DNA of 64,000 bases from an uncultured Chitinophagaceae bacterium (GCA_964537475.1 CAZIBY010000007.1:2837-66836); one strand, 5' to 3'; shown: positions 6,302-64,000, counted from the stretch's first letter. Numbers and translations: made by a program. Notes: generated from the sequence alone by a model not told the origin.

Positions 6302-6314
6302 ATTCTATAGCACG

Positions 6315-11288: not shown

Positions 11289-11306
11289 CGCAGAGACAAA
11301 TAAGTT

Positions 11307-11381: not shown

Positions 11382-11394
11382 CACAATGATAGAG

Positions 11395-39621: not shown

Positions 39622-39990
39622 ATGGCCAGACCAGTAAAACAAGACGATGTTAAGAAGCGCATACCGCGTCAATTTCGTCTCACTGAGGCGGAAGATATTA
39701 AGCTGAGGAAGTTGGCAGCGGATGAGGGATTGTCCGTCACAGATTACTTTAAACTTAAAACAATGGGAGTTGATCCCAAGCGCAGGAAAGCGACTCCAGA
39801 ACGGGAAATTCTCATTCGTGGGCTGGGTGATTTGGGACGCATTCGTGACAACATCAATGCAATTGCTAGGGGTGTAAATTCCTTAGAAGATGTTCCAACG
39901 GATAATTTGAGAGATAGGTTCAGTGATGCTCTTTTTGAGATAAGTGAGCTGTCAAAGCGTATAATTAATACCCTCGAAAATGGTTATTAA
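39622..39990 (+). CDS. mobC: MobC-like relaxosome accessory (ribbon-helix-helix) protein
   Basis: FRLTEAE...GLSVTDY...LGRIRDNINAIAR; overlaps the relaxase start. Confidence 0.8.
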   Translation: MARPVKQDDVKKRIPRQFRLTEAEDIKLRKLAADEGLSVTDYFKLKTMGVDPKRRKATPEREILIRGLGDLGRIRDNINAIARGVNSLEDVPTDNLRDRFSDALFEISELSKRIINTLENGY

Positions 39991-45909: not shown

Positions 45910-45919
45910 TAAAACAATC

Positions 45920-47095
45920 ATGTTCAGCGATATAAAATCAAATGCCATAAATGTAACGATAGCTTCCTTGTTGCTCCTTTCATTAACCTCCTGCAAACAA
46001 AAAGGGACAGAGGTAAAGGATGCTAAGAAAGAGGATAAGGCAAGTACATCAGAGGTGAAACTTTCCGCCGATCAGATAAAAGCTATTAGCCTTAAAACAG
46101 ATACAGTTAGCTTCCGCAACCTAAAATCTTCCCTTAAGGTGAATGGCAAACTCATGTTGCCACCACAAAATCAAGCACAAGTTTCAGTATTGATAGGCGG
46201 TATTGTTAAAGACATTCCAGTGACAGAGGGCGTTTTTGTCAATAAAGGTGATGTGCTGGCAACACTCGAAAATACAGAATTCCTGCAGGTGCAACAGGAA
46301 TTTTTGGAGAATAAAGCCTCAATGAAATATCTCGAAGCCGAATACAACCGTCAAAGGGAGTTACAGAAGGAGAATATCAACTCTACAAAAACCTTTCAGC
46401 AGATAGAAGCAGATTATACTAACTCTGTAACTAAAAGCAGGGTGTTATCTGCTAAATTAAAGTTGTTCGGAGTTAATCCAGAAACCCTAACATCTGACAA
46501 AGTAAAATCGACTTTTGCTATTACCGCTCCTATAAGCGGGTCTATCAAACATATAGATGTCTTTATAGGCAAATACGCTGAGCCTAATAAGCAAATCTTT
46601 GAGATCGTCGATAATCGCTACTTGCACATTGACCTTACTATATATGAGCAAGATGTAGCTAAAATAAAGACCGGGCAGCAGGTCCTGTTTACTATTATCA
46701 ATGACTCCCACCATCCACATACCGCGACAATTTTCAGCATCAACAAGGCTTTTGAAGATAATCAGCAGGCAGTCATAGCTCACGCCAAAATCAATGCTAT
46801 AGATGACAATCTTTTACCTGGTATGTTCATTGAGGCCCGTGTACAGATAGACAACTATGAAGCAATGAGCTTGCCTAATGAAGCTATTGTTAGCAATGGC
46901 AGCGACCACTATATTTTTATAGATAAAGGTGACGGCAAATACCAAGAGGTACAAGTTACAGTAGGCACTACTGATATGAACTTCACAGAAATAACTCCCC
47001 TTCAAAATATATTCTCGGGTAGTCGTATTGTGACTACAGGAGCCTATTATCTACTAAGTCAGCTTACAAAGGGAGAGGGCGAGAATCATGAATGA
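45920..47095 (+). CDS. RND periplasmic adaptor (CzcB-like) lipoprotein
   Basis: Lipobox LTSC; VTEGVFVNKGDVL and APISG lipoyl-like motifs. Confidence 0.9.
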   Translation: MFSDIKSNAINVTIASLLLLSLTSCKQKGTEVKDAKKEDKASTSEVKLSADQIKAISLKTDTVSFRNLKSSLKVNGKLMLPPQNQAQVSVLIGGIVKDIPVTEGVFVNKGDVLATLENTEFLQVQQEFLENKASMKYLEAEYNRQRELQKENINSTKTFQQIEADYTNSVTKSRVLSAKLKLFGVNPETLTSDKVKSTFAITAPISGSIKHIDVFIGKYAEPNKQIFEIVDNRYLHIDLTIYEQDVAKIKTGQQVLFTIINDSHHPHTATIFSINKAFEDNQQAVIAHAKINAIDDNLLPGMFIEARVQIDNYEAMSLPNEAIVSNGSDHYIFIDKGDGKYQEVQVTVGTTDMNFTEITPLQNIFSGSRIVTTGAYYLLSQLTKGEGENHE

Positions 47096-47147
47096 TGTGG
47101 AATAGTCAAGAGCTTTACTTTATAGAATTACTCAATAAAATAATGAT

Positions 47148-49142
47148 ATGTCGAAAGAATGTTGCAGTTCAGATAAAAAGATAAACCGCAAAATAGATTT
47201 GCGAGCTACAGCCATAAATGGTAGCGATGATCTCGTGACCTTTAAGGATGGCGAGGATAATGATGAAAGCCACGAAAGTGATAACTCTGCAAGTTGGTTA
47301 AGTCATTGGCCTTTATTAACTGCATTGGCTATTCTTTTAGTGATGCTAATTTTGGAATATGGCTTTAAGTATCGGCCCCCATTTCCGATCAACCTAATAA
47401 TATACACGGCTGCATACTTACTCGCCGGGTACAATGTGCTGAACCTTGCCTTTCGTAAGGCAATACGATTAGATTTCTTTAATGAGTTCTTCCTCATGAG
47501 TGTTGCGACCATTGGTGCATTTGCCTTAGGTTCTTACAGTGAAGGCGTTGCTGTGATGGTTTTCTACTCGATAGGTGAATGGTTTCAGGATTCTGCTGTG
47601 GACAGAGCAAAGCGAAGTATCAAGGCCCTTTTAGATATACGCCCGGATGAGGTAACGGTTTTAAGAAATGGAGTAACCTTAACTGTTAATCCTAGTGAGG
47701 TTCAGATAGACGAAATCATACAGGTGAAAGCCGGAGAAAAGGTAGCACTGGACGGAGAGTTAAATTCAGAAGCCTCTACATTCAATACAGCAGCTTTGAC
47801 AGGTGAAAGTAAACCAGATACTAAACGCAAAGGGGAACAGGTTTTTGCAGGTATGATAAATCTCGATAAGGTTTCCGAGATCAAAGTAAAGGCACTATTC
47901 AAGGACAGCAAGCTGAGTAAGATACTTGAAATGGTACAGGATGCCACAGCAAGAAAATCCCAGACCCAACTATTCATCAGCCGATTTGCTAAAATCTATA
48001 CTCCTATTGTTTTTGCATTAGCACTGGCAGTATGCCTATTGCCCTATTTCTTTGTTCATCCGTATATTTTCAATGTTTGGTTTTATAGAGCATTGGTATT
48101 TCTCGTGATCAGTTGCCCTTGTGCTTTAGTCGTATCAATTCCTTTAGGATATTTTGGAGGTATCGGTTTAGCATCACGGAGTGGTATCTTATTCAAGGGA
48201 TCAAATTTTCTCGATGTGATCACTAAGGTGAATGTGGTGGTCATGGATAAGACAGGGACGCTGACCAAAGGCGTATTTAAGGTACAGGAAGTTATCACTA
48301 ATGGCATAGAGAAGGACGAACTGGTGAGGCTTGCAGCAGCCATAGAAAGCAATTCCACACATCCGATTGCAAAGGCTGTAGTGGCTTATGCAGGTGATAA
48401 TAGTAAGAATGTCAAAGTTGATAATGTCGAAGAAATAGCCGGACACGGATTAAAAGGCACTATCGAGGGTAAAACTGTTTTAGCCGGAAATTTAAAACTT
48501 TTAAAGAAGTTCAACATCTCTTTCCCGGTAGAAATTGAATCATTGGTAGATACCATTGTAGTTGTAGCCATTGACGGTAAGTATGCAGGCCACATAACCA
48601 TTGCAGATGAGATCAAAGAAGATGCAAAACAGGCCATTGATGAGTTACGGGCATTAGGAATAAAAACAGTTATGCTATCCGGTGATAAGCAGGCTGTTGT
48701 TTCTAAGGTAGCAACTTCATTAGGAGTTGATACTTCACATGGGGACTTATTGCCGGAGGGCAAAGTAGAAAAGGTACAGGCTTTGAAAAACGAGGGGAAG
48801 CATATTGCCTTTGTGGGTGACGGAGTGAATGATGCCCCAGTGGTAGCTTTGGCTGACGCAGGTATAGCAATGGGAGGACTTGGCAGTGATGCTACTATTG
48901 AAACAGCCGACATTGTGATCCAGAATGATCAGCCCTCAAAGATTGTCACAGCTATAAAGATCGGGAAGATAACGAGGCGTGTAGTCTGGCAAAACATAAC
49001 ATTAGCTATGACAGTAAAAGTTATTGTACTGATACTCGGCGCGGGTGGAGTGGCTACACTATGGGAGGCGGTGATAGCAGATGTAGGTGTGGCGCTGTTA
49101 GCTATACTCAATGCAGTGCGAATACAAAGGATGAAATTATAA
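47148..49142 (+). CDS. Zn/Cd/Co-translocating P1B-type ATPase (CadA/ZntA-like)
   Basis: TGES, SCPCAL, DKTGT, STHP and GDGVNDAP motifs. Confidence 0.93.
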   Translation: MSKECCSSDKKINRKIDLRATAINGSDDLVTFKDGEDNDESHESDNSASWLSHWPLLTALAILLVMLILEYGFKYRPPFPINLIIYTAAYLLAGYNVLNLAFRKAIRLDFFNEFFLMSVATIGAFALGSYSEGVAVMVFYSIGEWFQDSAVDRAKRSIKALLDIRPDEVTVLRNGVTLTVNPSEVQIDEIIQVKAGEKVALDGELNSEASTFNTAALTGESKPDTKRKGEQVFAGMINLDKVSEIKVKALFKDSKLSKILEMVQDATARKSQTQLFISRFAKIYTPIVFALALAVCLLPYFFVHPYIFNVWFYRALVFLVISCPCALVVSIPLGYFGGIGLASRSGILFKGSNFLDVITKVNVVVMDKTGTLTKGVFKVQEVITNGIEKDELVRLAAAIESNSTHPIAKAVVAYAGDNSKNVKVDNVEEIAGHGLKGTIEGKTVLAGNLKLLKKFNISFPVEIESLVDTIVVVAIDGKYAGHITIADEIKEDAKQAIDELRALGIKTVMLSGDKQAVVSKVATSLGVDTSHGDLLPEGKVEKVQALKNEGKHIAFVGDGVNDAPVVALADAGIAMGGLGSDATIETADIVIQNDQPSKIVTAIKIGKITRRVVWQNITLAMTVKVIVLILGAGGVATLWEAVIADVGVALLAILNAVRIQRMKL

Positions 49143-49160
49143 CCTATCAACTAAGAGCAA

Positions 49161-50348
49161 ATGTTTAAAGCAATTACAAGAAGTATTCTGATATTATCAA
49201 TAGTATCATTCTTTACAGACATCTCTACTGAGATGCTTTATCCTATAACACCGCTCTTTTTAAAGAGCATAGGATATTCAGCTTTATTAATAGGTATAAT
49301 CGAGGGAGTAGCAGAGGCTATTTCGGGTTTGAGTAAAGCCTATTTCGGCGAGCTGTCGGATCGCAAGGGTGTACGACTGCCATTTGTGAAAGGTGGGTAT
49401 TGGATTAGTGCTGTAGCTCGTCCTATGATGGCAGCTTTTACATTTCCTTTGTGGATTGCCACAGCAAGATCACTTGACCTTTTCGGCAAAGGTATTCGTA
49501 CTTCTGCCCGTGATGCGTTATTATCTGATGAAGCAGATAATAGCACCAAATCAACCGTATTTGGATTTCATCGTACAATGGACACTTTGGGAGCAGTAAT
49601 AGGGCCATGTATCGGCCTGCTATACTTATACTTTTATCCGAATAACTACCGTCCTATGTTCCTTATTGCTTTTATCCCGGCTGTAGCAGCAGGATTAGCA
49701 ATATTGATATTGAAGGAAAAGAAAAAGGCTGTCACTGAAAGTAAACGTAAGTGGAGTTTCTTGTCAAGTTTCAGTTACATCGGGCGAAGCCCAATCGAGT
49801 ATAAAAAGCTGCTCATAGGCCTACTGGTGTTTACTTTGTTTAATAGCAGCAATGCCTTTCTAATACTTAAAGTTAAAGCAAGTGGTCAAAGCGATATAGC
49901 AACGATAGGAGTTTATGTTTTCTATAATTTCATTTATGCTTTATTCTCATACCCTATGGGCAAACTCGCTGATAGATTTGGATCAAAAGTCATATTCTGT
50001 TTTGGTCTTGTCATATTCGCTTTAGTATATGCAGGAATGGGATTGAATACAAATCTCTATGGCTTCTATGTACTATTCTTTTTTTATGGTTTGTATATGG
50101 CGAGTACAGAGGGAGTAAGCAGAGCATGGCTTAGTAACATTGCTTCTAAAAAAGATACAGGCTCGGCATTGGGAGTATATGCTGCCCTTAATAGCATCCT
50201 GACGTTGTTTGCCAGTATCATTGCAGGTTTTATCTGGTCACACTACTCACCATCATTGACGTTTTACATTACCGCCGGAGTTACTGCTGCTGTCATTGTT
50301 TATTTTATCATAGCTATAAAGACTAATCCAGCGATCAAAGAAGATTAA
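49161..50348 (+). CDS. MFS transporter
   Basis: About 12 hydrophobic helices; GELSDRKGVR and GKLADRFG MFS loops. Confidence 0.9.
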   Translation: MFKAITRSILILSIVSFFTDISTEMLYPITPLFLKSIGYSALLIGIIEGVAEAISGLSKAYFGELSDRKGVRLPFVKGGYWISAVARPMMAAFTFPLWIATARSLDLFGKGIRTSARDALLSDEADNSTKSTVFGFHRTMDTLGAVIGPCIGLLYLYFYPNNYRPMFLIAFIPAVAAGLAILILKEKKKAVTESKRKWSFLSSFSYIGRSPIEYKKLLIGLLVFTLFNSSNAFLILKVKASGQSDIATIGVYVFYNFIYALFSYPMGKLADRFGSKVIFCFGLVIFALVYAGMGLNTNLYGFYVLFFFYGLYMASTEGVSRAWLSNIASKKDTGSALGVYAALNSILTLFASIIAGFIWSHYSPSLTFYITAGVTAAVIVYFIIAIKTNPAIKED

Positions 50349-51021: not shown

Positions 51022-51876
51022 ATGAGTTTCTATCACTTTAAAAAATGGCAGGATTTATCAACAGCTGCAATAGCACAGTTTGATGAAAGTTCAATAGAAC
51101 TGCAGCGAACTTCAGAGCGAGTCAAAGAAGAAATGTCAAAGGCCCGTGACGAGCATGACGATAGCGGAGCCAAAAGTTATTACGCTAAGGCGCAATTGCT
51201 TCCTCCTGGAACAAAACCAAAAGGTACTAGGGAAAACTGGACTAATCTTGATAAAGAACTGGATAAAATCATTTTTAAAGGATGTAAAGATTTCAAACGT
51301 CACATTGAAGAAAAGCGAGACGAAAATTCAGCTCCATATAGCGATGATCAACAAAAGGTTGTGGATTGGCTAGACCACGAAATAGATCTTGGAGAGAAGC
51401 AAGCAGAGAGGGAAAAAAAGTCGAAACGTTCACTCGATGAATCGCAAGATAAGATTATGAGTGAGCATGAAATGTCTAAGAGCAAACGTAACTCTGTAAA
51501 GTCCGAGAAGTCGATGGATGACAGCCAGGACAAAATGAAAAACATGTTAGGCGGAGGAAGTGATCCATCAGATAGTCCTTCTGATTCAAAAACTGATGGA
51601 CCCTCTGATGATGGTCCCCCAAATGGTAGTGATCCATCACCAAAGGGTAAAAATGAGATCAGCAACAATCAGTCGCCGAACGAAAAAAGTGATCACCCCG
51701 AAAGCAATACTTTGAACAAGCCTGAACAAAATAAAACGGAAGAGCAAAAACCTTCCTCCAACTCACAGCAAGAAATTAGCCAACAAGAAAGTGAAGAAAG
51801 GATGAAACAGTATCGGGAACGTTTAAATGCACAAAAGGAAAAAGGTAAGAATAAAGATCGAGACTATGATCGTTAA
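51022..51876 (+). CDS. Hypothetical hydrophilic, low-complexity protein with a relaxase-like charged tail
   Basis: S/D/P-rich centre; ends KEKGKNKDRDYDR; converges on virD4 with a 4-bp overlap. Confidence 0.65.
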   Translation: MSFYHFKKWQDLSTAAIAQFDESSIELQRTSERVKEEMSKARDEHDDSGAKSYYAKAQLLPPGTKPKGTRENWTNLDKELDKIIFKGCKDFKRHIEEKRDENSAPYSDDQQKVVDWLDHEIDLGEKQAEREKKSKRSLDESQDKIMSEHEMSKSKRNSVKSEKSMDDSQDKMKNMLGGGSDPSDSPSDSKTDGPSDDGPPNGSDPSPKGKNEISNNQSPNEKSDHPESNTLNKPEQNKTEEQKPSSNSQQEISQQESEERMKQYRERLNAQKEKGKNKDRDYDR

Positions 51877-54311
51877 CCTCGCTTCTTGTGATAGGGATTA
51901 GCATCGTAATCTTCGCCCTCTATAAGTTCAGGCATATCCAAATATGAGCGTTTGGCAAATCGCGCTGGATAGTTTTGGTCTATTACAGTAAAGATTTCCT
52001 TTCCCGATGCAATGCGAAGTTCATCAGGGTTAATCAATAATCGCCCTTCAGCACCATCTAAAAATCCGAGCCTGCTATGAAGCGCATGTGTGGTTTGCCC
52101 AAACATTTGTGAAATATATCCCGTACTAAAATTATCTGATATGTTGAAGAAGTGGCGTATTGAACAGGAGCTCATGAATCCTTCCCAATGCTTTCCATGC
52201 ATATCTGCTAGTTGATTCAAATTCTGTAAGATTGCCCAAATATGTACTCCATATCCGGCATAAGTACCTAATGCGGTATCTACTTCTGAGATATAATCGA
52301 GCGCATAATATTCGTCCAGCAGGAAACAAACATCCTTATTGGGGTTACGTATTACAGTTCTTAATGCTGTAGTCACAATCAATCGCAGCCATTGTTTATG
52401 CGTTGTGAGTTTATCGGCTGGGATTATAACATAGACGGCAGTATTACCATCCATCAAATCAGACATTTTGAATTCAGTTGAAAGAAGCGCTCTCTGCAAT
52501 GGCGGTGACTTGATAAAGTCAGTATTACTAAAGACGCTTGCCATGATCGCACTATACATTTTTTCATTATTTCTCATGACAATTATTTCACTGGCCACAG
52601 CTCTAACAGCTAAAATAGTACTACCTGCCATTTGTATGAGAAATTCGTCCAATTCATCTTCGGCCAACCTGGTTACTTCATAGAGATAAGTGAGATTTTT
52701 TTTATCCTTTGGAGCCTTGTCTGCAATGTGCATGATAAAGCCCGCAACAAGTGACCTTGCGCGGTCGTCCCAGAATGTATCTTTGTTAGTTTCCGCTTTG
52801 CTAATCGGAATAATCATTTCGGCAATGATGCTGGCATCGTCAACAAAATTATCATCATCTTTGTTTGTCAAAAGATCTAAGGGATTATATGATGAGCCTT
52901 TAAGATGAGGACATTCATTGACGAGTAAATCCCATGGATTCAAAATAATGACTTTACGGCCAAGCTTTTCTGCCTGTATTCTTGCGGTAACCGCCGCATT
53001 CTCTCCTTTAGGATCAACAATTAAAAATGAACCTTCAAACCGTCCAACCTTAGTAAGGTTCGGAATGATAAGGTTTACTCCTTTTCCTCCTCTTGTACCT
53101 GCAACCGTAAGAATATGGCCTCTTTTGTCGTAGTACTGTCCATTACCAATATATATCCCTTTAGCCTCTTCATCCGACTGTAAACTATCTTTCAAATCTT
53201 CCTCTGTTGCAAAGCGAGCCGTACCGTGTTTTGCAACGTCGAAGTGATACTTATAAATCCTGTGCCGCCATCCCTCAAAGAAAAACCATGAAGCCTTAAA
53301 TAATGCGAAGGCCGTTGAGACCCATGTGATTAAAAATGCGATCAATAATATGGGGACGACAATGAATAGAACGATAGGAACGAGAATTGCAAAAATCACA
53401 CTCATGAACTTAGGCATATGTATATGCATGTTATGAATGAGATTAGGAATCAGATGGAGAAAAAATATAAAATATTGATACGCTGTATGAAAGATTCCAA
53501 AGCCATATTCTGACGCGATGTTTGCTATACCCCATATTAATATAACAGGCAAAAGAAAAAAGGCGATAGCTCCCGTGGCCAAACCAATGTAGAGCGGTAC
53601 CATAGCTCCAAAGATCATGGCTACATACAGTAGCCTAGGCTGTCCATTTAATACAGGGTCTACTTTAGCATCTCGCAGTTTCAAATTATCAAACGCCCAG
53701 CGATAGCAAGCCATCGCTAACCATGCAGATGCTGGGCTAATCATGCATAAAAGAAACAGCCACAGCATATAGGGGAATTCTTCTGTCTCAACACGGGGAA
53801 AGAGTGCTTGCATCACTTCCTTCCAATATGTGCGATTCAAAAAGAGTTGTTCGAAATCGTAGTAGAAAAGACTTTGCAGCTTGTAAGGAAACACCTTTCT
53901 AAATGGCCATAGAAGGAACCTGACAATTTTCAATGATATTTTCAGATAAAGCTTTACGTACCAGATGATGAATGGTCTGAGAATACGCCACGCTTCTTTT
54001 AAATTATGTATGCAATAGAGTTTCCAAGTTCTCCATAACCGATCAGAGACAGGTGTGTTATTGATTATCTCATCCTCAGTAATAATATTTGGCTCAAACA
54101 CCTCATTAACAGTTGAGCTGGGTTGTGTGTCGGCATTAGCCTTATTATCAAAATTACTATCGTTGGAGGAAGTTTCCTCATTGTCGACCTGAGTAGGTCG
54201 AGTCATTGATTTGCGAAGTTTATGAAACGCTTCTTTTGCTATTCGTAGAGAATCATTGATCTCAAACTTTACCTCCTTAATGAAATTGGCAAGTTCCTTC
54301 CTTAGGCCCAT
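51873..54311 (-). CDS. virD4: Type IV coupling protein (VirD4/TraG family)
   Basis: HGTARFA; Walker A AGTRGGKG; VDPKGE; WDDRA; Walker B LLDEY; ILQNLNQL. Confidence 0.9.
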   Translation of the reverse strand: MGLRKELANFIKEVKFEINDSLRIAKEAFHKLRKSMTRPTQVDNEETSSNDSNFDNKANADTQPSSTVNEVFEPNIITEDEIINNTPVSDRLWRTWKLYCIHNLKEAWRILRPFIIWYVKLYLKISLKIVRFLLWPFRKVFPYKLQSLFYYDFEQLFLNRTYWKEVMQALFPRVETEEFPYMLWLFLLCMISPASAWLAMACYRWAFDNLKLRDAKVDPVLNGQPRLLYVAMIFGAMVPLYIGLATGAIAFFLLPVILIWGIANIASEYGFGIFHTAYQYFIFFLHLIPNLIHNMHIHMPKFMSVIFAILVPIVLFIVVPILLIAFLITWVSTAFALFKASWFFFEGWRHRIYKYHFDVAKHGTARFATEEDLKDSLQSDEEAKGIYIGNGQYYDKRGHILTVAGTRGGKGVNLIIPNLTKVGRFEGSFLIVDPKGENAAVTARIQAEKLGRKVIILNPWDLLVNECPHLKGSSYNPLDLLTNKDDDNFVDDASIIAEMIIPISKAETNKDTFWDDRARSLVAGFIMHIADKAPKDKKNLTYLYEVTRLAEDELDEFLIQMAGSTILAVRAVASEIIVMRNNEKMYSAIMASVFSNTDFIKSPPLQRALLSTEFKMSDLMDGNTAVYVIIPADKLTTHKQWLRLIVTTALRTVIRNPNKDVCFLLDEYYALDYISEVDTALGTYAGYGVHIWAILQNLNQLADMHGKHWEGFMSSCSIRHFFNISDNFSTGYISQMFGQTTHALHSRLGFLDGAEGRLLINPDELRIASGKEIFTVIDQNYPARFAKRSYLDMPELIEGEDYDANPYHKKRG

Positions 54312-54493: not shown

Positions 54494-55195
54494 CTAGTAA
54501 TTGTATGAAGTTGTAATTGTCCCGGATGGCATAGTTTGCAATTCCGTTGTAACACGACCTTGCGCATCCGTTTGATAGGTATAGTTATTATTTATGTTTC
54601 CTTGAGTTGATGAGCTGATAAGATTTGTATTGTGCTTACCTAGAAATTTCAAACCAAAATCGCGGTTGTCTTTTTGTTGGCTAAAACTGTATGTGATGAG
54701 AGTATTGCTAATATTTAGAACGTTTGAGGAAATTATATTGCTATTGGACATCACGTAGACTGTAGTATCCATTTGACCAAGTGCCGGATCATAGTTAATC
54801 GCTCTAAGTAAGTAACCATTACCATCATAGGTGTAGATACCGCCCTTGCTATCACTGACTGCTAGACCCTGGGTATTAAGATTGAAGGTAGTCGTATCGT
54901 AAGAATAGCCGAGTATGTGCGGTAGTTTTATCCTGACTACTGAGTTACCGCTATAAGAATAGTTCTCTTCATAGATTTCTCCGTTAGCGTAAGTCACCCG
55001 ACCTTGTGCATCATACTGATAGGTTTTATACTCAGTGATGGAGCTGCCATTTGAGTTATCAGTAATGATTGACGATACAACTTTGGTTGTCGTGGAATTG
55101 CCGTTTCCATTGCCATTGCTAACGGAATTGTCTTTTTTGCACGAAGAAAAAATCAGCAGGGTGAGTAGTGAAAAATACAATATTGATTGTTTCAT
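54494..55195 (-). CDS. Lipoprotein with YD-like beta repeats
   Basis: Lipobox FSSC; YQYDAQGRV, YTYDGNGYL and YQTDAQGRV repeats. Confidence 0.75.
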   Translation of the reverse strand: MKQSILYFSLLTLLIFSSCKKDNSVSNGNGNGNSTTTKVVSSIITDNSNGSSITEYKTYQYDAQGRVTYANGEIYEENYSYSGNSVVRIKLPHILGYSYDTTTFNLNTQGLAVSDSKGGIYTYDGNGYLLRAINYDPALGQMDTTVYVMSNSNIISSNVLNISNTLITYSFSQQKDNRDFGLKFLGKHNTNLISSSTQGNINNNYTYQTDAQGRVTTELQTMPSGTITTSYNY

Positions 55196-55210
55196 AAAAA
55201 ATAGATTGTT

Positions 55211-56950
55211 TTATTGATGAATAATTACTTTTTGAGAAAATGATTTGTTGGCAGATTGAAATTGTAAGAGATAAAGACCCGTTGGCAGTTCAAGGCTGAT
55301 TGGAGTTTTATTTTCCGTTACTTGTCGCTGATACACGTTTTCGCCAATACTGTTATATAGGATTACATCACCCGAGTTTGGCGTTTGAAAGATGAATGAA
55401 CCATTATTAGGATTAGGATAGATGCCTATTGCATTTGGTCCAACGTTCTTTATCCCTGTTGAAGTATAGGCTATTGAATTAGATGTTGCCGAGCCGCAAT
55501 TATTGGTAACGATAACAGTATAGTTGCCGTTTTGTGTTGGATTATAGTATTGGCCTGTTGCACCTGGGATTAAAACGCCGTTCAGATACCATTGATTGCC
55601 AAATGAGGCATCACTTTCTAAACCTGTACCATTATCATAGATTGTAGCGGAAGAAGGTGCACCAGTGGCTAGATATGGCTGTGAGGATGTAACAACGCTC
55701 CAATTGGCTAAGTTATCCTGTAACTGGTAATAAAAGTTAGTTGTGCCTGAATACGCGCTATTACAGAAGTCAATAAAGCTATTATAGCCAATTACACGCG
55801 CAGGCGTGAAATTGATATAAGCCATATCACTTGGCGGGTTTGTGTGATCTGTCCAATAACGGACAGCCTTAATCTTGGAGATATTAGGATCTTGCGCTGA
55901 TGCCCCTAGGCTGAACCCTAACATTCCATTATTGGTATTGGTCGCTACATTAAGCCTTATCCAATGGGGGTTGAAAGGCACCATTCCATCCTTCCACTTA
56001 TATTGTGCTCCATAGATACCCACTTGGGTGTGTCCAATACCCAAAGTATCAGCAACCGGATTGATAATATGGAAGTCATTGACAAAGCTATAGGTTGTGT
56101 AATCGTTAGGGTTGTACCAGTAGGTGAAGATTGAATTGGGCGAAGTCCAATAAGGATTTTGGGTTTGGCTAACAATATGCGTCCCAAATGTCAGAGACCC
56201 CCCCGGTTTGAGTATCCATGCATTATTTGTAAAACTTGAATGCTCGTCTACATTCAGGGCAGCAGTAGTACTGAAAAGGATAACATTGTTTTTGTAGATC
56301 ACGCCCTGATTTTGACTAGTAGCACTAAAGGTACTTGCACTTGCTATGATGCTATTACTTATAATTGTACCACTCACCGCGCCAGCTATCCAATGAACGT
56401 ATGAACCGTCAATATTCACCGTACTTGCGCCACCGAGATCAATATAATCTATGACACAGCCCTTGAAGCTGAGATTTGAAATATGATTGAAAGCTGTATT
56501 ACCTGTAGCAAGCAAGTAGTCAACTTTACAGCGATAGAACTTAATACCGGATGTTATATCATTGGCATTAATGGATAGGTAGACGTGATTGGTAAAGTCA
56601 ATTCCATGCATCTCGGCATTGCTACTACCATTTTGAAACACAATTTGTGCGCCACTAGCATAATCAAAGTGGGTAAGTATAGTACTATCAGGATCAGCGC
56701 CAGCGCCAACAATGACAACGCCCGATTTAATGTAAAGAGTACCGCCTAATTGAAAGTTTGCGGCGGGTAAGTAAAGCGTATCTCCGGTTAATGCGGAATC
56801 TATGATGGGCTGTAAGACGTAGCGGGTGTAAGGAGCAGTAATGTAATAAAACCTTGTTTGCCCATGTGATTGCTTAGCGATGACATCTTGGGCTGAAAGA
56901 CTCATCGCCGTTGAGAGAGATAGAATGATTGTAAGAAAAATGCATTTCAT
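55211..56950 (-). CDS. Secreted beta-helix-like protein with T9SS type A domain
   Basis: Signal peptide from ATG 56950; Asn/Ile-rich beta-helix-like core; QWYLNG Ig-like module; IYPNPN...GLYLL...KVIIH C-terminal domain. Confidence 0.8.
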   Translation of the reverse strand: MKCIFLTIILSLSTAMSLSAQDVIAKQSHGQTRFYYITAPYTRYVLQPIIDSALTGDTLYLPAANFQLGGTLYIKSGVVIVGAGADPDSTILTHFDYASGAQIVFQNGSSNAEMHGIDFTNHVYLSINANDITSGIKFYRCKVDYLLATGNTAFNHISNLSFKGCVIDYIDLGGASTVNIDGSYVHWIAGAVSGTIISNSIIASASTFSATSQNQGVIYKNNVILFSTTAALNVDEHSSFTNNAWILKPGGSLTFGTHIVSQTQNPYWTSPNSIFTYWYNPNDYTTYSFVNDFHIINPVADTLGIGHTQVGIYGAQYKWKDGMVPFNPHWIRLNVATNTNNGMLGFSLGASAQDPNISKIKAVRYWTDHTNPPSDMAYINFTPARVIGYNSFIDFCNSAYSGTTNFYYQLQDNLANWSVVTSSQPYLATGAPSSATIYDNGTGLESDASFGNQWYLNGVLIPGATGQYYNPTQNGNYTVIVTNNCGSATSNSIAYTSTGIKNVGPNAIGIYPNPNNGSFIFQTPNSGDVILYNSIGENVYQRQVTENKTPISLELPTGLYLLQFQSANKSFSQKVIIHQ

Positions 56951-57046
56951 GGCGGGTGCGGATTTGTGAAATGCAAAGCAAAACAAAAAAATCAAATACC
57001 CCAAATTTGGGGTGGTAGGGGTTTCTACTTAGCCGAACTTTGATAT

Positions 57047-57262
57047 GTGCCAAAGAGTGAAGAAACATTATTAAAGGAGTTTGGAAAAAGACTTGCAGCT
57101 ATCCGAAAAGAAAAGGGATTTAGCCAGGAGAAGCTTGCATGGGAAGCAGGAATTGGCGACAATCAGATAGGACGCTTTGAAAGAGGCGAAAACAGTGCCT
57201 CTATAACTCAGATATTCAAAATCTGTAAGGCCCTTAAGATTGAGGCTAAAGAATTATTTTAG
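57047..57262 (+). CDS. XRE-family HTH regulator
   Basis: GKRLAAIRKEKGFSQEKLA...IGRFERGE. Confidence 0.9.
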   Translation: MPKSEETLLKEFGKRLAAIRKEKGFSQEKLAWEAGIGDNQIGRFERGENSASITQIFKICKALKIEAKELF

Positions 57263-57577: not shown

Positions 57578-58924
57578 ATGCAGACAATTGAATTTGGATT
57601 ATATGAAGGGCTCGTCGACGAATTAGAGGCGCGCATCATTGATAAATTTCGTGCTGGTAACCCAGAGCCGCCATTGCTATTAGACTTCAGTTCGATTCAA
57701 TTTATTCGCGTCGAATCTCTCGTGTATCTTGTTTCATTTATTGCAAGACGTCACAAGCAAAATATTGAGACTAAAATCAAGTATTATTCTAACACTACTA
57801 TCCGGCAGTTTCTTAATACTTCCCGTTTCTTTGAGACGATTGAAGATGTCTGCGGCCTAGCAATTACAGATTTAGTAGTTGACTTACCTGCGAATTTTGA
57901 GAAAACAGCGCTGTCAATTGATTATTTCAAACGGTCAAAATTTGAACTTTCACCGGACGGGACACAGCGTGAATTAACAGAGAAAGAAAAAATAGAATAT
58001 TTAAAAGAAAAGGGCTTCTATCCTCTATCATCATTGGCATTTGAAGATGATATTCAGAAATCTAATACATTAAAAGAAGAACCTAAGAATTGGACAGAGG
58101 GGAAACCTATTGTTTCAATTATTCAGAAAAATCTCCCCGAAAAAGTGGTCGTAGGTGATAAAATATCAAAACATATCATCTATGAAAGTATTACCAATGC
58201 TATTAGACACCCCAAAAGTGGTAAGCTTGTTATCTCATGTATCAGACAAGACAACTATTATACACTTGTGATTTGGGACAATGGAGAAAGCATTGTTGAA
58301 ACGCTAATGGGAGAATTGGAAAAAGGAAATTCAATAAAAGCGGAATCATCTGACGATGATTTTCACTCTTGTTATTGTGTCGTAAAAAATAAGATACCTG
58401 GTCGACCAAAGGCTGAGAACTTCGACTATTTCTTCTCCTATGATATCCCCAATTTAAATGAGGTGGATGAAACCAAATTATATAGAAAAGAGAAATGGTT
58501 TGTTTTGCTTTCTTCCCTTTTTCCGGGTATTACACGAGATCCCCAAGGTGCTGACTATGATAAGAGAAAAATCCTTAACGAAGTCGAAAAGCCACCCTTA
58601 ACGGGAAGAGGGCTAACTTATCTTATCAATGCGGCAGTTAGAAATTTTGGTGGAGAAGTTCGGATAAGAACTAGTAACTATTTTGTAAACATCAAACAGG
58701 CTGAAAAAGATTATAAAACTTTACCAACGCTTTTCTTTAATAATTTCAAAAACGATTATTACGTCATAGACTATAAAGAAAAATATGACGCTGAGAATAT
58801 TGAACCCCAAAATAAGAAGATTATAAACAGTTTATTCAGAGCCAAGGTTGAGGAATTTTCTAATAATTACCCTCCTTTTGAAGGCAACATGATTACTGTT
58901 CATATTCCGCAAATGAGCCTATGA
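57578..58924 (+). CDS. STAS-like + GHKL/HATPase_c protein
   Basis: LLLDFSSIQFI STAS-like strand; ESITNAIRH N-box; WDNGES G1 and GRGLTYL G2 boxes. Confidence 0.7.
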   Translation: MQTIEFGLYEGLVDELEARIIDKFRAGNPEPPLLLDFSSIQFIRVESLVYLVSFIARRHKQNIETKIKYYSNTTIRQFLNTSRFFETIEDVCGLAITDLVVDLPANFEKTALSIDYFKRSKFELSPDGTQRELTEKEKIEYLKEKGFYPLSSLAFEDDIQKSNTLKEEPKNWTEGKPIVSIIQKNLPEKVVVGDKISKHIIYESITNAIRHPKSGKLVISCIRQDNYYTLVIWDNGESIVETLMGELEKGNSIKAESSDDDFHSCYCVVKNKIPGRPKAENFDYFFSYDIPNLNEVDETKLYRKEKWFVLLSSLFPGITRDPQGADYDKRKILNEVEKPPLTGRGLTYLINAAVRNFGGEVRIRTSNYFVNIKQAEKDYKTLPTLFFNNFKNDYYVIDYKEKYDAENIEPQNKKIINSLFRAKVEEFSNNYPPFEGNMITVHIPQMSL

Positions 58925-60804
58925 TAACCCTATATCCTTTTCTTTTTCGATTTGGAATTTCATTCAATTATAGTATTCCTAAAGAGATTATTGAATCTGT
59001 CAGAGTTTTTTTCCAAGCGAAATACAGTATAAACATTAACCTAAATCAATCCGCTGATAGCTACGATTGCATTGCAATTTCGGATAAAGATGCTGAGTAT
59101 ACACCAATACTTGGAAATAGATTTACAGAGAGATTAAACGAGTATGGCATCGCAGATTTTCAACAATCAATATTGTTTATTGATATAAAGAGCGTCTACA
59201 GTCATAAATTCGTTGACAGCTTTTTGATACCAGAGATTATAAAAATTAAAAATGAGCATAAATTAAAAACGGGTACGTTCCCTAATTTCATTCTTTATTT
59301 TGATGAATTAGAAAGTAAATCGTTGACCTATGATAAATTATTTACCAGTCATGCTTCAAATAAGATCTTAGATTTTTGTTATGTTTTTGACAAAAATGGC
59401 AATTTTCTTAATCCCAAATTGGAAATTGCTGCGGATAGTAATCTTCACACGCTAGTAAACGACACTTCTACTTCAGCACTCGAAAGATTCCAATTCAAAC
59501 TCGTAAGAAAAATTAATCATTTTGAAAGGCTGGATGATAACAGCCATTCATGGGCCGCTTGCCAACAATTTTTTTACGAAGGTCAAAATTGTGATGAAGA
59601 AGTTTTTCAGCTTTTAAAAGAAGAACTCCTTAAAATGCACAAGGAGGGTATTAACCCTCATTACATCGTATATCATACGTTATATTCTGAATGGCTAACT
59701 AGAGCAATCGAGTCCGTGTCGAATACTATTGGATCAAGATCATTCGAGGATGTGTTTACGCATTATTCGAAAAAGCACTCCACTGAAGGCGAGAATCATC
59801 TTAATCTTGCTGGTGTTAACGACATACGAAACAGTGATGATTGGATTTCAGATGAAGAAGGATTGGAGATCGTATTTATTACAGACTTAATTCATACTGG
59901 AAATACCTTTAAAGAGAAAATAAAGAAAGTTTCTAAGAAATTCCCTAATGCGAAAATCACTTGCTTGAGTGCGTTGGTGACAGATCATGCTTATGAAGAG
60001 AATAAAAGTACAAATCAAGAAACAGATAGGAAATTTCAAATTAACAGCCACGTTGTTAGATATTTTAAAAAAGTTGAACAAATCTACATTCCGAGATCAT
60101 CCAACGGCACTAAATGCCATATGTGCAAACATAATCTGCTCCCGCCAGCTAATATAAAAGCCGATATTCTTCCGGGTTTATCAAGCTATGAAATGTGGTT
60201 AATGAGCGAAGAATCAGGGTATAAAATTGAGGATTACCGTCCTAGAAGAAGAGAAGATGTGAATAGGTTAGTACCCCACTCTCTCAAACTTTTCAAAAAA
60301 AACGGCACTCTATTGGCGATTAAATTTGAGGAGCAATTAAAACTAGCAGAAATATACCCCAATATTGAAATCGTCATCTTATTCCCCGATGAAACACAAA
60401 ATGACTATGAAGATGGGCTTCCTGAATCTATTGAAAAAACCCCTTCTGGATATTTTGCGAAATGCCTAAATTTTTACAACAATAAGTACACTTACTTAGG
60501 CATACCTCGGAAAATGATTAAGTTGTTGGAAGAGAAAAACGCGGATTGGGATAAGGTTCAAAAACAATTTCCTAAGATCCTAAAACAGATCGAAGATATT
60601 GACAAACCAATAGTCATTCTCGATGAAGCCAATTTTACAGGTAAAACATTCAGAACAATTGCTGACATTCTCCGTAACAAAGGCAAATATCCTGTATGCT
60701 ATTTCCCTATTTTTAATTATGATGCTCAAAGAACAAATGACGAGTTCAAAAAGGAATATGATTCAGTAAAGTTTCTAAATCTCTATGAATTAAATTTCGC
60801 ATGA
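58921..60804 (+). CDS. Protein with two type I phosphoribosyltransferase-like domains
   Basis: Two PRPP-loop-like motifs, IVFITDLIHTGNT and IVILDEANFTGKT; ATGA overlaps on both sides. Confidence 0.7.
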   Translation: MITLYPFLFRFGISFNYSIPKEIIESVRVFFQAKYSININLNQSADSYDCIAISDKDAEYTPILGNRFTERLNEYGIADFQQSILFIDIKSVYSHKFVDSFLIPEIIKIKNEHKLKTGTFPNFILYFDELESKSLTYDKLFTSHASNKILDFCYVFDKNGNFLNPKLEIAADSNLHTLVNDTSTSALERFQFKLVRKINHFERLDDNSHSWAACQQFFYEGQNCDEEVFQLLKEELLKMHKEGINPHYIVYHTLYSEWLTRAIESVSNTIGSRSFEDVFTHYSKKHSTEGENHLNLAGVNDIRNSDDWISDEEGLEIVFITDLIHTGNTFKEKIKKVSKKFPNAKITCLSALVTDHAYEENKSTNQETDRKFQINSHVVRYFKKVEQIYIPRSSNGTKCHMCKHNLLPPANIKADILPGLSSYEMWLMSEESGYKIEDYRPRRREDVNRLVPHSLKLFKKNGTLLAIKFEEQLKLAEIYPNIEIVILFPDETQNDYEDGLPESIEKTPSGYFAKCLNFYNNKYTYLGIPRKMIKLLEEKNADWDKVQKQFPKILKQIEDIDKPIVILDEANFTGKTFRTIADILRNKGKYPVCYFPIFNYDAQRTNDEFKKEYDSVKFLNLYELNFA

Positions 60805-61532
60805 TTACAGTTGAGAAAATCTTATCTAACATTAAATCCATCGGCTATTTTCTAGCGAGTAAAAAAGACATTTTAGCTAATGCTGACTTCCATACTAAAA
60901 TAGAACAGGATGGCGGCGAATTAGTGGCTGATATCGTCGATCTTAAGCTAAGTGATTTACAATATAACCTAGATACATTAAACGAAATATTCAAACAAAT
61001 GAAACCTTCTGCCATTCAAAAAATTAAGATATGCATTGCTTCATCTCATTCTCTTAAAGAAGAACGTGAGGAAATAGAAACTTTCCTATTCAGGGAGAAT
61101 GACACTCTCGTGGATGATGGTATTTACCTCTACTACAATGTTTGGGAAAAACAATCTCTTCGATTTAATAACACTTATAAGCAAGAAGACTTCAACGAAG
61201 CTCTAGTAAACGAGAGTGATATATTTATATGCCTGATAGGTGATGCCGTCGGAAAATTTACCAAGGAGGAATTTGATAAAGCTAAAGAGCGCTTTACTAA
61301 AGGAGAAAAACCATTTGTATTTTACGTGTATTTTAAAGATTTTGAAGGTAAGCCAACTCATTTTTATGAATCTCAGGATTGGAAAAATAGAATTGAACTC
61401 AAAGATTATATTTTTTCCAAGTTAAATCAATGCGCTGGTACTTTTAAAAATAGCTCCGATTTGATTAGAAGGATAGACGCATCCCTAAAAGAAGATATCG
61501 AAATAGTAAAAAAGAAAACATCTACGCCGTAA
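60801..61532 (+). CDS. TIR-like/DUF4062-like domain protein
   Basis: ICIASSHSLKEERE...WEK...SDIFICLIG...FTKEEFDKA...VYFK. Confidence 0.7.
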   Translation: MITVEKILSNIKSIGYFLASKKDILANADFHTKIEQDGGELVADIVDLKLSDLQYNLDTLNEIFKQMKPSAIQKIKICIASSHSLKEEREEIETFLFRENDTLVDDGIYLYYNVWEKQSLRFNNTYKQEDFNEALVNESDIFICLIGDAVGKFTKEEFDKAKERFTKGEKPFVFYVYFKDFEGKPTHFYESQDWKNRIELKDYIFSKLNQCAGTFKNSSDLIRRIDASLKEDIEIVKKKTSTP

Positions 61533-61630: not shown

Positions 61631-61891
61631 TTAACGGTCAAAATCCTTTCCCTTTTCTTTGTTGCGCTGACGCTTCTCTTTTGATTTTTGAAGCTCCTCC
61701 CTAAACTTTTCCCGCTTTAATTCTTGGGAGCCTTCATCCAGACCTTGGAAGTACAGGCTTTTTTTATCCTGAATTCCGTTACGCAAGGCATTCATCGTTT
61801 CAGGGTTTTCCCTCTCCAATTCATATCCATGATTAAAGCCCCGTGCATACGTAGCCTTTTCTTCCTTTGTAAAGTCCTTTTCCTCACTCAT
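61631..61891 (-). CDS. Small hypothetical protein of the mobile element
   Basis: Coupled to the HTH gene; YARGFNHGY motif; charged tail KEKGKDFDR. Confidence 0.65.
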   Translation of the reverse strand: MSEEKDFTKEEKATYARGFNHGYELERENPETMNALRNGIQDKKSLYFQGLDEGSQELKREKFREELQKSKEKRQRNKEKGKDFDR

Positions 61892-62160
61892 ATTATCGTA
61901 TCTTTTGCATGTTTGTCCAAATACTCATAAATGGATTTCAAATCGTAAAGTATGATTTTTCTATCTGGCTGAGTATACCTTATACGCCCCTCATTTCGAT
62001 AATTTTGCATCGTGGTTTTGCTTTTGACATTAAGCTTCTGCATAGCAATTTCTTCAGTCACCCAGCGGTCTTCCTTGACAGCTTGTTTCTGTGCGTAGCG
62101 AGCTAAAACTTCATCAACAAGCTTATACAAAGCTTCATCTTGTAGGCAAATCACTTGCAT
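61888..62160 (-). CDS. Bacteroidota excisionase-like HTH protein
   Basis: MQVICLQDEALYKLV...WVTEEIAMQKLNVKSKTTMQNYRNEGRIRY. Confidence 0.85.
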   Translation of the reverse strand: MQVICLQDEALYKLVDEVLARYAQKQAVKEDRWVTEEIAMQKLNVKSKTTMQNYRNEGRIRYTQPDRKIILYDLKSIYEYLDKHAKDTII

Positions 62161-62411: not shown

Positions 62412-64000
62412 ATGGAAAGTACTACTAAATCTATTGCCTTTATAACCGACCATGAAACAAAGGTCGATTTGCTTAACAATGAAGCCATTGCTAAGACAAT
62501 TATTAGCCTAATAGAACAGAATAAAAAAAATCCCATTACAATAGGTGTCCATGGGGATTGGGGAGCAGGAAAGTCCAGCATTCTCGAAATGATTGAATCT
62601 GGTATGCCTTCAAACGATGATGTTCTATGTTTAAAATTTAATGGCTGGCAGTTTCAGGGGTTTGAGGATGCGAAGATAGCTGTTATTGAAGCTATTGTTA
62701 CAGAACTCATTGAGAAGAGATCGCTCTATACTAAAGCTGCCGAGGAGGTAAAAGAGATTTTAAAGCGCATAGACTGGTTGAAAGTGGCAAAGAAAGCCGG
62801 AGGTCTAGCATTTACGGCGTTCACGGGGATTCCATCTTTTGATACAATAGAAAGCGTCATTAATGTAGCCAAAAGTACTTTAGGCGGTATTACCGGTGCA
62901 GATGCCATTGAGAAAGCTGGCGAGGTAAGCTCAGCCCTTTCAGGATTACTTAAGGAAAAGGGAGAAAGTCAAAATGTCCCTAAGGAAATACAGGAGTTTA
63001 GAAAAGCCTTCAAAAAGCTATTGGAAAAATCAAAAATATCCCGGCTTATTGTCCTTATCGATGATTTGGATAGATGTCTACCAGAAACTGCTATCGAGAC
63101 TCTTGAAGCAATTCGGCTTTTCATTTTCCTTCCTAGTACCGTTTTTATTATAGGTGCGGACGAAGCAATGATTGAGTATTCTGTACGCAAACATTTTCCT
63201 GATCTACCTGAATCAAGTACTTCTCAAAGCTATGCACGAAATTATCTTGAAAAGTTAATACAAGTCCCATTGAGAATTCCTTCTTTGGGTGATACTGAAA
63301 CAAAAATATACGTGACATTGCTTTTGTTAGGCGGTGCCATTGATAATGAATCACAGGAATATACACAGCTGCTTGATTTGGGGCGTAAGGCTCTTCAAAC
63401 ACCTTGGGAGGGAAAAGGGATAGAACATGATGATATAAAGAAAATTCTCAAGGAAAGATTTGAATCCGTTCAAGGATTACTTTTATTATCTGATCAGATA
63501 TCCCCTATCCTGTCAGCTGGAACCAAAGGCAACCCTAGGCAAATCAAACGATTTTTAAATGCGCTTAGCCTAAGACTCAGCTTGTCTAAAGAAAGGGGAT
63601 TTCATGATTCTATAAATGAAAGCACTCTTGCTAAGCTTATGCTTGCAGAACTGTACCTGCCGTCATCTGTTTTTGAGCACATAGTAAATTCTGTAGCAAG
63701 TTCGTCTGATGGTACCTGTGCTGAATTGAATAAAATAGAGCAACTAGAAAGTGAAGCTGGGAAAGTTGTTACTACCTCAAAAGCTACAGTAAAAGAAGTT
63801 CAAGAGGTCGAAGAAATTAATCCGATTTTGGAAGACTGGAAAATACGTAGCGATGTAATGAGATGGGCAAGAATTGAACCTCAAATTGGAGGAAAATCAC
63901 TTAAACCGTATTTATTTGTTATCAAAGATCGTAAGAATTATCTCTCGACTTCTACTCCGCTGTCACCCAAGCTGATTGGACTTTTGCAGAAGCTTCTTGG
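62412..64000 (+). CDS. qatA: KAP-family P-loop NTPase, QatA-like; 3' end outside window
   Basis: Absent from the ORF track; my translation from ATG 62412 gives ETKVDLLNNEAIA, Walker A GDWGAGKS, FNGWQFQGFEDAK, Walker B IDDLDRCLP and GNPRQIKRFLN. Confidence 0.85.
   Translation, partial: MESTTKSIAFITDHETKVDLLNNEAIAKTIISLIEQNKKNPITIGVHGDWGAGKSSILEMIESGMPSNDDVLCLKFNGWQFQGFEDAKIAVIEAIVTELIEKRSLYTKAAEEVKEILKRIDWLKVAKKAGGLAFTAFTGIPSFDTIESVINVAKSTLGGITGADAIEKAGEVSSALSGLLKEKGESQNVPKEIQEFRKAFKKLLEKSKISRLIVLIDDLDRCLPETAIETLEAIRLFIFLPSTVFIIGADEAMIEYSVRKHFPDLPESSTSQSYARNYLEKLIQVPLRIPSLGDTETKIYVTLLLLGGAIDNESQEYTQLLDLGRKALQTPWEGKGIEHDDIKKILKERFESVQGLLLLSDQISPILSAGTKGNPRQIKRFLNALSLRLSLSKERGFHDSINESTLAKLMLAELYLPSSVFEHIVNSVASSSDGTCAELNKIEQLESEAGKVVTTSKATVKEVQEVEEINPILEDWKIRSDVMRWARIEPQIGGKSLKPYLFVIKDRKNYLSTSTPLSPKLIGLLQKLL

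Follow-up and report, generated by a model that had tools for sequence, protein, structure and literature searches.

A candidate anti-phage operon with a STAS-GHKL and tandem phosphoribosyltransferase core and an exchangeable third component

Signalling in two steps that ends in TIR, PNP or SIR2 effectors is known from the cyclic-oligonucleotide-based antiphage signalling system (CBASS), Thoeris, Pycsar and type III CRISPR, and the SpoIIAB-SpoIIAA and RsbW-RsbV modules act as ATP-dependent switches. The Detocs system (DtcABC) of Rousset et al. 2023 is said to comprise an H-box kinase, a REC buffer protein and a REC-PNP effector that work by a His-Asp phosphorelay. PRTase-CE phosphoribosyltransferase (PRTase) domains were reportedly predicted to degrade nucleotides by Nicastro et al. 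2023, the source of that family, and the same work is said to describe nucleotide-targeting effectors that are linked with GHKL (HSP90-like) modules. A 2026 'NIR' preprint reportedly presents DUF4062 as a TIR-like NADase in phage defence. As TIR-like NADases, DUF4062 proteins defend against phages by means of a catalytic Glu, and in KpSwz the trigger of the AUX domain is a phage portal protein (bioRxiv 10.64898/2026.05.01.722283; 10.64898/2026.06.25.731849). ShosT binds phosphoribosyl pyrophosphate (PRPP) and consists of a HAD-like pyrophosphatase and a single PRTase; its partner is a DprA-like DNA-binding antitoxin (PMC11961720; PMC12961424). Here, we describe a three-gene operon at 57578-61532 of a 64,000-nucleotide stretch of DNA from an uncultured Chitinophagaceae bacterium (GCA_964537475.1 CAZIBY010000007.1:2837-66836; the whole analysed stretch is called the window). 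Its genes, g1, g2 and g3, are predicted to encode a STAS-like protein with a GHKL domain, a tandem PRTase and a DUF4062/TIR-like protein. Comparison with related loci shows that g1 and g2 form a conserved core and that the third component is exchangeable.

The operon resembles several known systems. Its likeness to Swarozyc, Evangelion and 'NIR' lies in the DUF4062 matches of g3 (25 of 25 family members, all weak), in a predicted five-stranded TIR/NDT-like fold and in an invariant Glu that, like the catalytic E-Y of DUF4062, has an aromatic residue next to it; they too are borne on mobile genetic elements and lie in defence islands. They are, however, single-gene systems with a C-terminal AUX sensor domain, whereas g3 lacks AUX, carries a short, putative N-terminal helical adaptor and is tied by synteny to the STAS-GHKL and double-PRTase core. 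Membership was rejected on the three-gene layout and the missing AUX domain. As in Detocs, a GHKL-type kinase-like protein is encoded upstream of a predicted nucleotide-cleaving effector, and relatives of the operon carry a PNP nucleosidase like DtcC; the operon differs in having a tandem PRTase in the middle position and neither H-box, REC domain nor buffer protein. Detocs was rejected on the absence of an H-box, of REC and of any PADLOC match for g1 or g3. The g1 model resembles both partners of the SpoIIAB-SpoIIAA and RsbW-RsbV modules (STAS plus the GHKL Ser-kinase/anti-sigma fold), but in g1 they are fused in one chain, with no sigma factor and with an insert of about 105 residues carrying FPGxTRDP.

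ShosTA likewise pairs a PRTase protein with a Rossmann-like partner in anti-phage defence, but it has no GHKL protein, and the PRTase of g2 is a tandem one. Neither g2 nor g3 matched PADLOC ShosT or ShosA at E≤1 and the architecture is unlike that of ShosTA (PMC11961720), so this assignment was rejected. Domain 1 of g2 finds its best family matches in PRTase-CE, PRTase_2 and PRTase_III-A of the type III-A retrons (Retron-Eco11, PMC12746101), all weak (9e-6 to 2e-5); g2 differs as a tandem PRTase of about 600 amino acids bearing an N-domain of its own and a motif of four Cys, and a retron was rejected because the operon and its flanks contain no reverse transcriptase, although no search for an msr/msd ncRNA was made. 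The operon is not a member of Ophion either. In PADLOC v2, which was used for the comparison with defence models (Pfam for domains), no model matched g1 or g3, and our literature searches found no tested system of this architecture. The earlier note on this DNA, which knew of no tested system with this trio, agrees with this. Nicastro et al. 2023 may already have predicted this theme, or one related to it, by computation. What is most likely new here, judged from sequence comparison, is a previously uncharacterised core in a modular, putatively nucleotide-depleting system of the abortive-infection type.

The three genes lie on the forward strand, as do all features within them: g1 at 57578-58924 (448 amino acids), g2 at 58921-60804 (627 amino acids) and g3 at 60801-61532 (243 amino acids). 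At both junctions the start codon overlaps the preceding stop codon as ATGA (CCTATGATA at 58918-58926 for g1/g2, CGCATGATT at 60798-60806 for g2/g3), and the GC content was 0.338-0.339 over 58-61 kb versus 0.37-0.42 in the flanks. The earlier note had proposed three AT-rich genes with such overlaps; the open reading frames (ORFs) were recovered exactly where it had placed them, at a GC content of 0.34, and the motifs it quoted (TDLIHTGNT, LDEANFTGKT and EEF) are translated at the expected positions. The order, strand and near-zero spacing of the trio were repeated in eight other contexts, metagenomic or genomic, that are distinct from one another; because the flanks differ from one context to the next, the arrangement exceeds chance. 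This layout points to a single translationally coupled module.

To examine the gene order, we used 27 locus records (L001-L027), the ORFs of which were searched with hidden Markov models (HMMs) of g1, g2, the g3 N-domain (g3N) and the g3 C-domain. Wherever the upstream side could be read, in 16 of 16 distinct loci, a g1-like gene was directly followed by a g2-like gene, and this pairing persisted where g2 was only 26-30% identical (L012, L019 and L022). In close relatives (g2 36-67% identical) the third gene was always of the g3 type, and the g3 type was always the third gene of a three-gene operon. In L013 (g2 49% identical) and L019 (g2 28%), the third gene encodes a PNP_UDP_1/MTAN-like nucleosidase, matching the CBASS 'PN-superfamily' effector of PADLOC (PDLC00759) at 7e-31 and 1.4e-34, respectively. 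The g3N HMM also matched these PNP-type genes, at 4.9e-32 in L013 and more weakly in L019 (1.3e-5); the helical N-domain of the L013 product is 54% identical to that of g3, and P0073 is 54% identical over the same part. In L022 (g2 26%), a DUF4062-like third gene lacks the helical N-domain. Another type, here called type C, occupies the third position in L012 (3863-4993) and L021 (1538-2713), encoding proteins of 376-391 amino acids that are 48% identical to each other.

Fusions were also found. P0146 and P0207, distant relatives of g2, are double-PRTase proteins ending in PNP_UDP_1 (6e-14), and P0177 starts with a canonical TIR_2 domain (1.7e-16) followed by two PRTase domains. When the region upstream of both kinds of fusion was inspected, a g1 homologue was present in each case (7e-48 for P0146, locus L024; 2.5e-34 for P0177, locus L026). 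Together, these loci show that g1 and g2 are an inseparable conserved core, and that the third component is exchangeable and sometimes fused to g2. All of its identifiable forms (DUF4062/TIR-like, TIR and PNP/MTAN-like) resemble domains that are known as immune effectors and cleave N-glycosidic bonds. The linkage of gene 3 to the other two held in all close homologues, whereas elsewhere the third gene was replaced (by PNP or type C) or fused. The picture in the earlier note of a fixed trio with the PRTase as the gated output has to be revised, as the conserved unit is g1 plus g2 and the third gene is swapped or fused. With g1 and g2 constant and the effector variable, a place for g2 in the sensing or control core, or as a constant co-effector, is favoured over its being the output under control.

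The nucleosidase-type third genes of L013 and L019 share with CBASS effectors the catalytic domain only (PDLC00759); they differ in having no cyclic-nucleotide sensor domain, and the window operon has the DUF4062-like version instead. CBASS was rejected as an assignment, as no CD-NTase match was obtained in the window operon, L013 or L019. In the type-C proteins, the motifs LGGGDGTE, LLLEYD, VIECDL and IHAVLHEL resemble, by eye, the class I S-adenosylmethionine (SAM)-methyltransferase Rossmann fold. If type C is an effector, its chemistry would be other than that of N-glycosidases.

We next consider the three proteins, for which folds were compared with Foldseek (PDB and BFVD) using AlphaFold2 (AF2) models of g1 and g3. 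The g1 model is confident (predicted local distance difference test score, pLDDT, 90; predicted template-modelling score, pTM, 0.90) and comprises a STAS-like N-domain (residues ~1-110), a helical linker and a GHKL (HATPase_c) domain (residues ~191-448). Its STAS matches (SLC26A3, prestin, SpoIIAA 1th8_B, RsbV 6m36_B, TM1442 and 4hyl) were weak in E-value (0.017-0.22) and coherent, with probabilities of 0.66-1.0; Foldseek also returned SpoIIAB, an anti-sigma kinase, and the catalytic domain of DesK (E-values at least 0.017). No sequence profile matched the STAS region. The GHKL region scored 27.4 bits against Pfam HATPase_c (cut-off 26.4), its nearest kinase models being the catalytic domains of NarQ, NarX, UhpB, DesK and VraS, and a PDB sequence search with a narrow g1 profile gave kinase catalytic domains only.

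Conservation was assessed in an alignment of 25 g1 sequences (A2). Invariant residues mark the N-box YESITNAIRH (58181-58210; E203, N207, R210 and H211), the G1 box WDNGES (58274-58291; W233, D234 and G236), in which the second Gly of DxGxG is substituted (DNGES), and the G2 box GRGL (58604-58615; G343, G345 and L346). The residues that define GHKL proteins (E203, N207, D234, G236, G343 and G345) are thereby all invariant, and the ATP-binding residues are kept across the family. Between the G1 and G2 boxes lies the ~105-residue insert, in the lid, with the motif FPGITRDP (58520-58543; G317, R320, D321 and P322 invariant in A2). This FPGxTRDP motif is family-specific; it can still be made out in the distant homologue of L024, and in L026, L019 and L022 it has become degenerate.

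No HisKA family matched g1, and the sole invariant His of the 25 sequences is H211, inside the N-box. In the model, the STAS domain and linker take the place of the DHp hairpin, and no REC-domain gene was found in the loci examined. A two-component sensor histidine kinase was ruled out, as g1 lacks DHp/HisKA and an H-box. A SpoIIAA-type antagonist was also rejected: the column of the phospho-Ser (DSSG) holds V, I or L in A2, as judged in a manual, not structure-based, alignment. On the basis of the AF2 model, the coherent Foldseek matches and the conserved GHKL boxes, g1 appears to be a STAS-like domain fused to a GHKL ATPase/kinase without DHp or H-box, which agrees with the earlier description of a STAS-like start and GHKL boxes lacking a HisKA H-box.

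The second protein, g2, divides into an N-domain (residues 1-190) and two PRTase-like domains, domain 1 (residues 191-410) and domain 2 (residues 411-627). A narrow g2 profile found only HGPRT in the PDB (0.07). The wide search, a profile run against 1.84 billion representatives, gave 329 clusters, mostly of 550-620 amino acids, and only the profile of the wide alignment (121 members) reached significance against the PDB, matching HPRT in domain 1 (2.9e-4 over ~110 residues) and both APRT and the PurR regulatory domain in domain 2 (about 6e-4). Both halves that had been proposed from two PRPP-loop motifs therefore match solved PRTases, and each has a PRPP loop within a PRTase core, as in type I PRTases. 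When the two halves were compared with hhalign, the PRPP loops alone aligned (E 0.018); the N-domain matched neither half.

Loop 1, TDLIHTGNT (59881-59907), has a conserved TG.T and a single acidic residue, D322, which is lost in P0011. Loop 2, LDEANFTGKT (60619-60648), has the canonical acidic pair D568-E569 followed by G574 and T576 (conserved in 85%, 80%, 88% and 91% of the wide family, respectively). This loop and the pyrophosphate (PPi)-loop-like motifs are kept across the 121 divergent members, and domain 2 (P2) is the best conserved part of g2. In a basic motif, KLVRKINHF (59497-59523), each of K193, H200 and F201 is kept in 90% or more of the 121 wide-family members. Four conserved Cys residues, C214, C224 and the C399 and C402 of a CxxC motif (60115-60126), probably form a structural Zn site. 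Around TDLIHTGNT, g2 matched PRTase-CE (1.9e-5) and PRTase_2 (2.2e-5), both under the cut-off; the PRTase-CE (PF24390) match reached 25.1 bits against a gathering cut-off of 27 and covered only HMM positions 89-162 of 253. PRTase-CE was matched by 11 of 18 g2 family members (best 1.2e-8) and PRTase_2 by 14 of 18, and seven g2 homologues carry the database pre-annotation PF24390. The match of domain 1 to the PADLOC retron PRTase_III-A was weak (9.2e-6).

These features bear on whether g2 is itself an effector. In that case, g1 would be the sensor or switch and g2 a catalytic 'conflict effector' PRTase, consuming PRPP or cleaving or misrouting nucleotides alongside the putative NADase g3, or alongside an ATP nucleosidase in relatives. 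Depletion would then be irreversible, since resynthesis of NAD+ from nicotinamide, like that of AMP from adenine, requires PRPP. The g2 protein does border on Pfam PRTase-CE, in which CE denotes conflict effector; loop 2 is canonical and, like the PPi-loop-like motifs, kept as in active enzymes; P2 is the best conserved part; and PRTases are toxins or effectors in tested systems (ShosT, which binds PRPP and is toxic, Retron-Eco11 and Ophion OpnC). However, the constant genes of modular defence families are usually sensors or transducers, and it is g2 that is constant here while the third gene varies. Moreover, the TIR and PNP fusions with g2 resemble an effector joined to a regulatory domain, PRPP loop 1 is degenerate, its lone acidic residue being lost in P0011, and the type-C third gene does not fit the base-salvage logic. 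We regard an effector role of g2 as somewhat less likely than the regulatory role favoured below, though almost as good an account.

The g3 model (pLDDT 83) shows an N-domain of three helices (residues 1-66; 60801-61004), which is probably a docking adaptor, and a C-domain (61005-61532) with a five-stranded flavodoxin-like fold of the DUF4062/TIR/NDT-like kind; the chain ends at the last helix of the TIR-like domain. The EEF motif (61266-61274) has invariant E157 and F158 and lies where the helix that follows strand 3 begins, so that E157 occupies the position of the TIR/DUF4062 catalytic Glu in the model. The motif is kept as YTKEEF in the distant L022 third gene. Residues 117-132 form a BB-loop-like segment that is disordered in the model and highly conserved. 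The NPHP3 model was matched by 20 of the 25 g3 members, and the best BFVD match was a nucleoside 2-deoxyribosyltransferase-like protein (6.2e-4); a narrow g3 profile found nothing among PDB sequences at E≤10. With DUF4062 matches throughout the family, all below the cut-off, a TIR-like fold and the invariant E157, g3 is probably a TIR/DUF4062-like protein with the Glu of EEF, as the earlier note proposed.

A second alternative, close to the version in the earlier note, concerns the link between g2 and g3. Here, g1 would sense infection and g2 would make a non-canonical nucleotide from PRPP, which as a second messenger would activate g3. PRTases do form N-glycosidic bonds from PRPP, the effector types are shared with CBASS, and CBASS, Thoeris, Pycsar and type III CRISPR systems as a rule reach their TIR, PNP or SIR2 effectors by signalling in two steps. 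Yet g3 has no recognisable ligand-sensor domain, only the 66-residue three-helix N-domain, which is itself missing in the L022 version, and the covalent g2-effector fusions leave a diffusible signal unnecessary. To our knowledge, no PRTase makes an immune second messenger. This route seems very unlikely.

We tentatively favour, at a little under an even chance, a third reading, in which the module is an anti-phage system of the abortive-infection type whose g1-g2 core senses or gates while g3 depletes NAD+. In this scheme, g1, g2 and g3 would sit in one complex, with g3 docked via its 66-residue helical N-domain and the effector kept off at rest. g2 would be a ligand-sensing regulatory subunit using its PRPP/nucleotide-binding loops, like the PRTase domain of PurR, and g1 an ATP-dependent switch working by phosphorylation or by a partner-switch-like release as in SpoIIAB/SpoIIAA, without His-Asp phosphotransfer. 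An infection-linked shift in a nucleotide metabolite or in energy state would release g3, which would hydrolyse NAD+ through E157, so that phage replication is stopped and the cell is lost. We assign the regulatory role to g2 because it is the constant partner, because the fusions join effectors to it in the way they would be joined to a sensor domain, and because domain 2 is as much PurR-like as APRT-like. In its most specific form, with the tandem PRTase neither a metabolic enzyme nor a toxin but a ligand-sensing or signal-converting regulator of interchangeable NAD+- or ATP-cleaving effectors, under a STAS-GHKL one-chain partner switch that reads nucleotide or energy state, the proposal is doubtful. 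The defence interpretation given earlier stands insofar as the defence and mobile context supports it; its PRTase as gated output needs revising.

Several observations weigh against this favoured interpretation. The DUF4062 (PF13271) matches of g3 members all fall below the cut-off (best 9.3e-4), the PDB Foldseek matches of g3 are to flavodoxin-like folds including plant TIRs with weak E-values (at least 2e-3), and the column that corresponds to the N-terminal aromatic residue F11 of Evangelion (Eva01) is mostly Cys. The conserved PRPP loops of g2 would be equally expected of an active enzyme. No domain of the trio is hypervariable, unlike many sensors of phage proteins; STAS, g2-N, g2-P1 and g3N diverge just modestly more than the other parts. 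The g3 N-domain shows no similarity to g1 or g2, so a homotypic pairing of 'effector-associated domains' is unsupported, and we infer a physical complex from the gene overlaps and fusions only. Finally, the type-C third gene matched nothing in Pfam, PADLOC or the PDB and has no recognisable nucleotide-cleaving domain.

If the trio defends, an anti-sigma-like STAS-GHKL switch with a tandem PRTase would be a new core among bacterial immune architectures, and the newly recognised DUF4062 NADases would for the first time appear in a multi-gene setting. Such a system would also offer a handle on the role of PRTase domains in immunity, a question that extends to ShosT, type III retrons, PsyrT/RqlI and Ophion. 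If the sensing scheme is true, surveillance of PRPP or nucleotide pools through a PRTase fold would be an added sensing principle, and anti-sigma-type kinases would gain a new immune use. The natural swaps and fusions (DUF4062, TIR, PNP and the Rossmann-like protein) provide a comparison set that could separate sensing from killing.

The family is very rare and patchy in distribution. Each protein has 21-27 close relatives among 5.8 billion clusters (25 g1 homologues), and a scan of 185,579 species genomes gave one locus only, truncated, in a Cloacimonadota metagenome-assembled genome. No relatives of the module were found in IMG/VR viral contigs, INPHARED phages or PLSDB plasmids. In six or more contexts, independent of one another, its members are neighbours of defence systems to which they are unrelated. 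In L022, a SPARTA-type short prokaryotic Argonaute (pAgo) system (1233-4083; TIR-APAZ 4.7e-84, short pAgo 1e-191) is directly upstream of the g1-g2-DUF4062-like module, and in L013, an ABC-3C system (3432-6372; CTD12, MC6/MC8 and a DUF2326 ABC ATPase) directly follows the PNP-type variant with overlapping gene ends. Other relatives adjoin Piwi and a type I restriction-modification system; ThsB_TIR, PIN and Fic; SIR2_2; and RES with HicB. Mobile genes were also found next to relatives, namely an integrase at one locus and conjugation genes in L014. In L024, a weakly RVT_1-like gene and a helix-turn-helix (HTH) gene (5345-6575, reverse strand) are convergent to g1 and the g2-PNP fusion; the former could be a retron or DRT neighbour.

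This distribution also bears on a non-immune role, either as a nucleotide-salvage or stress-metabolism operon or as a toxin-antitoxin-like addiction module by which the conjugative element is stabilised. The operon does sit on an integrative conjugative element beside efflux cargo, PRTase and nucleosidase folds are housekeeping folds, and RES/HicB, PIN and Fic neighbours are also typical of toxin-antitoxin-rich regions. On the other hand, the rarity and patchiness of the family (21-27 close homologues each, one locus in 185,579 genomes), the unrelated defence neighbours in at least six contexts, the swapping and fusion of effectors, which are hallmarks of conflict systems, and the lack of a metabolic pathway in the flanks make such a role improbable.

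In the window, a QatA homologue (62412-64000, forward strand; PADLOC PDLC02209 3.2e-231, KAP_NTPase 8e-52) starts 880 bp past g3 and is cut by the window end; a QatABCD system probably begins with it. Two small reverse-strand ORFs lie between them, one of 86 amino acids (61631-61891) and one for an HTH_17 excisionase-like protein (61891-62160). On the other side, the region 30349-54311 is predicted to be the backbone of an integrative conjugative or mobilisable element. It encodes a Tyr integrase (30349-31578, reverse strand), a DnaG-like primase (32336-33235), a TrwC relaxase-helicase (33635-36388, reverse strand), the anti-restriction protein ArdC (36705-37709), a NikA and MobA relaxase (39622-41158) and a TraG/VirD4 coupling protein (51876-54311, reverse strand). 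With the integrase, two relaxases, ArdC, the type IV coupling protein and the strong QatA match, the suggestion of a mobile element next to a QatA-like gene was borne out. Carried by a conjugative element together with Qat and metal/drug efflux cargo, the system would be a case of defence genes travelling with resistance cargo.

An HTH_3 protein of 71 amino acids (57047-57262, forward strand), like the 'control proteins' of restriction-modification and defence systems (PADLOC 3.8e-14), is encoded 315 bp upstream of g1. It was rejected as a system member, as no HTH gene precedes g1 in other loci; it may be a regulator of just this copy, or else part of the element. A scan for sigma-70 promoters and terminators gave counts at shuffle level, with a tool that does not cover Bacteroidota promoters.

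The element backbone also encodes DUF2958. Within the efflux cargo (41608-50345), one ORF encodes a 1433-residue protein in which a full AcrB-type resistance-nodulation-division (RND) pump and an outer-membrane-factor (OEP) domain are joined, which is unusual and is given as read in the assembly; an HlyD-type adaptor, a P-type ATPase and a major facilitator superfamily transporter follow. Between the coupling protein and the operon (54497-57004, reverse strand) are an ORF for an RHS-repeat lipoprotein-like product and one for a 597-residue protein with a type IX secretion system (T9SS) sorting domain; this C-terminal sorting domain supports a Bacteroidota host. At 7001-10000, the GC content is 0.58-0.61, with a reverse-strand ORF of 1329 amino acids, while most of the remaining window is at about 0.36-0.42. 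A tRNA-Ser and a tRNA-Pro at 11200-11382 may mark an integration boundary.

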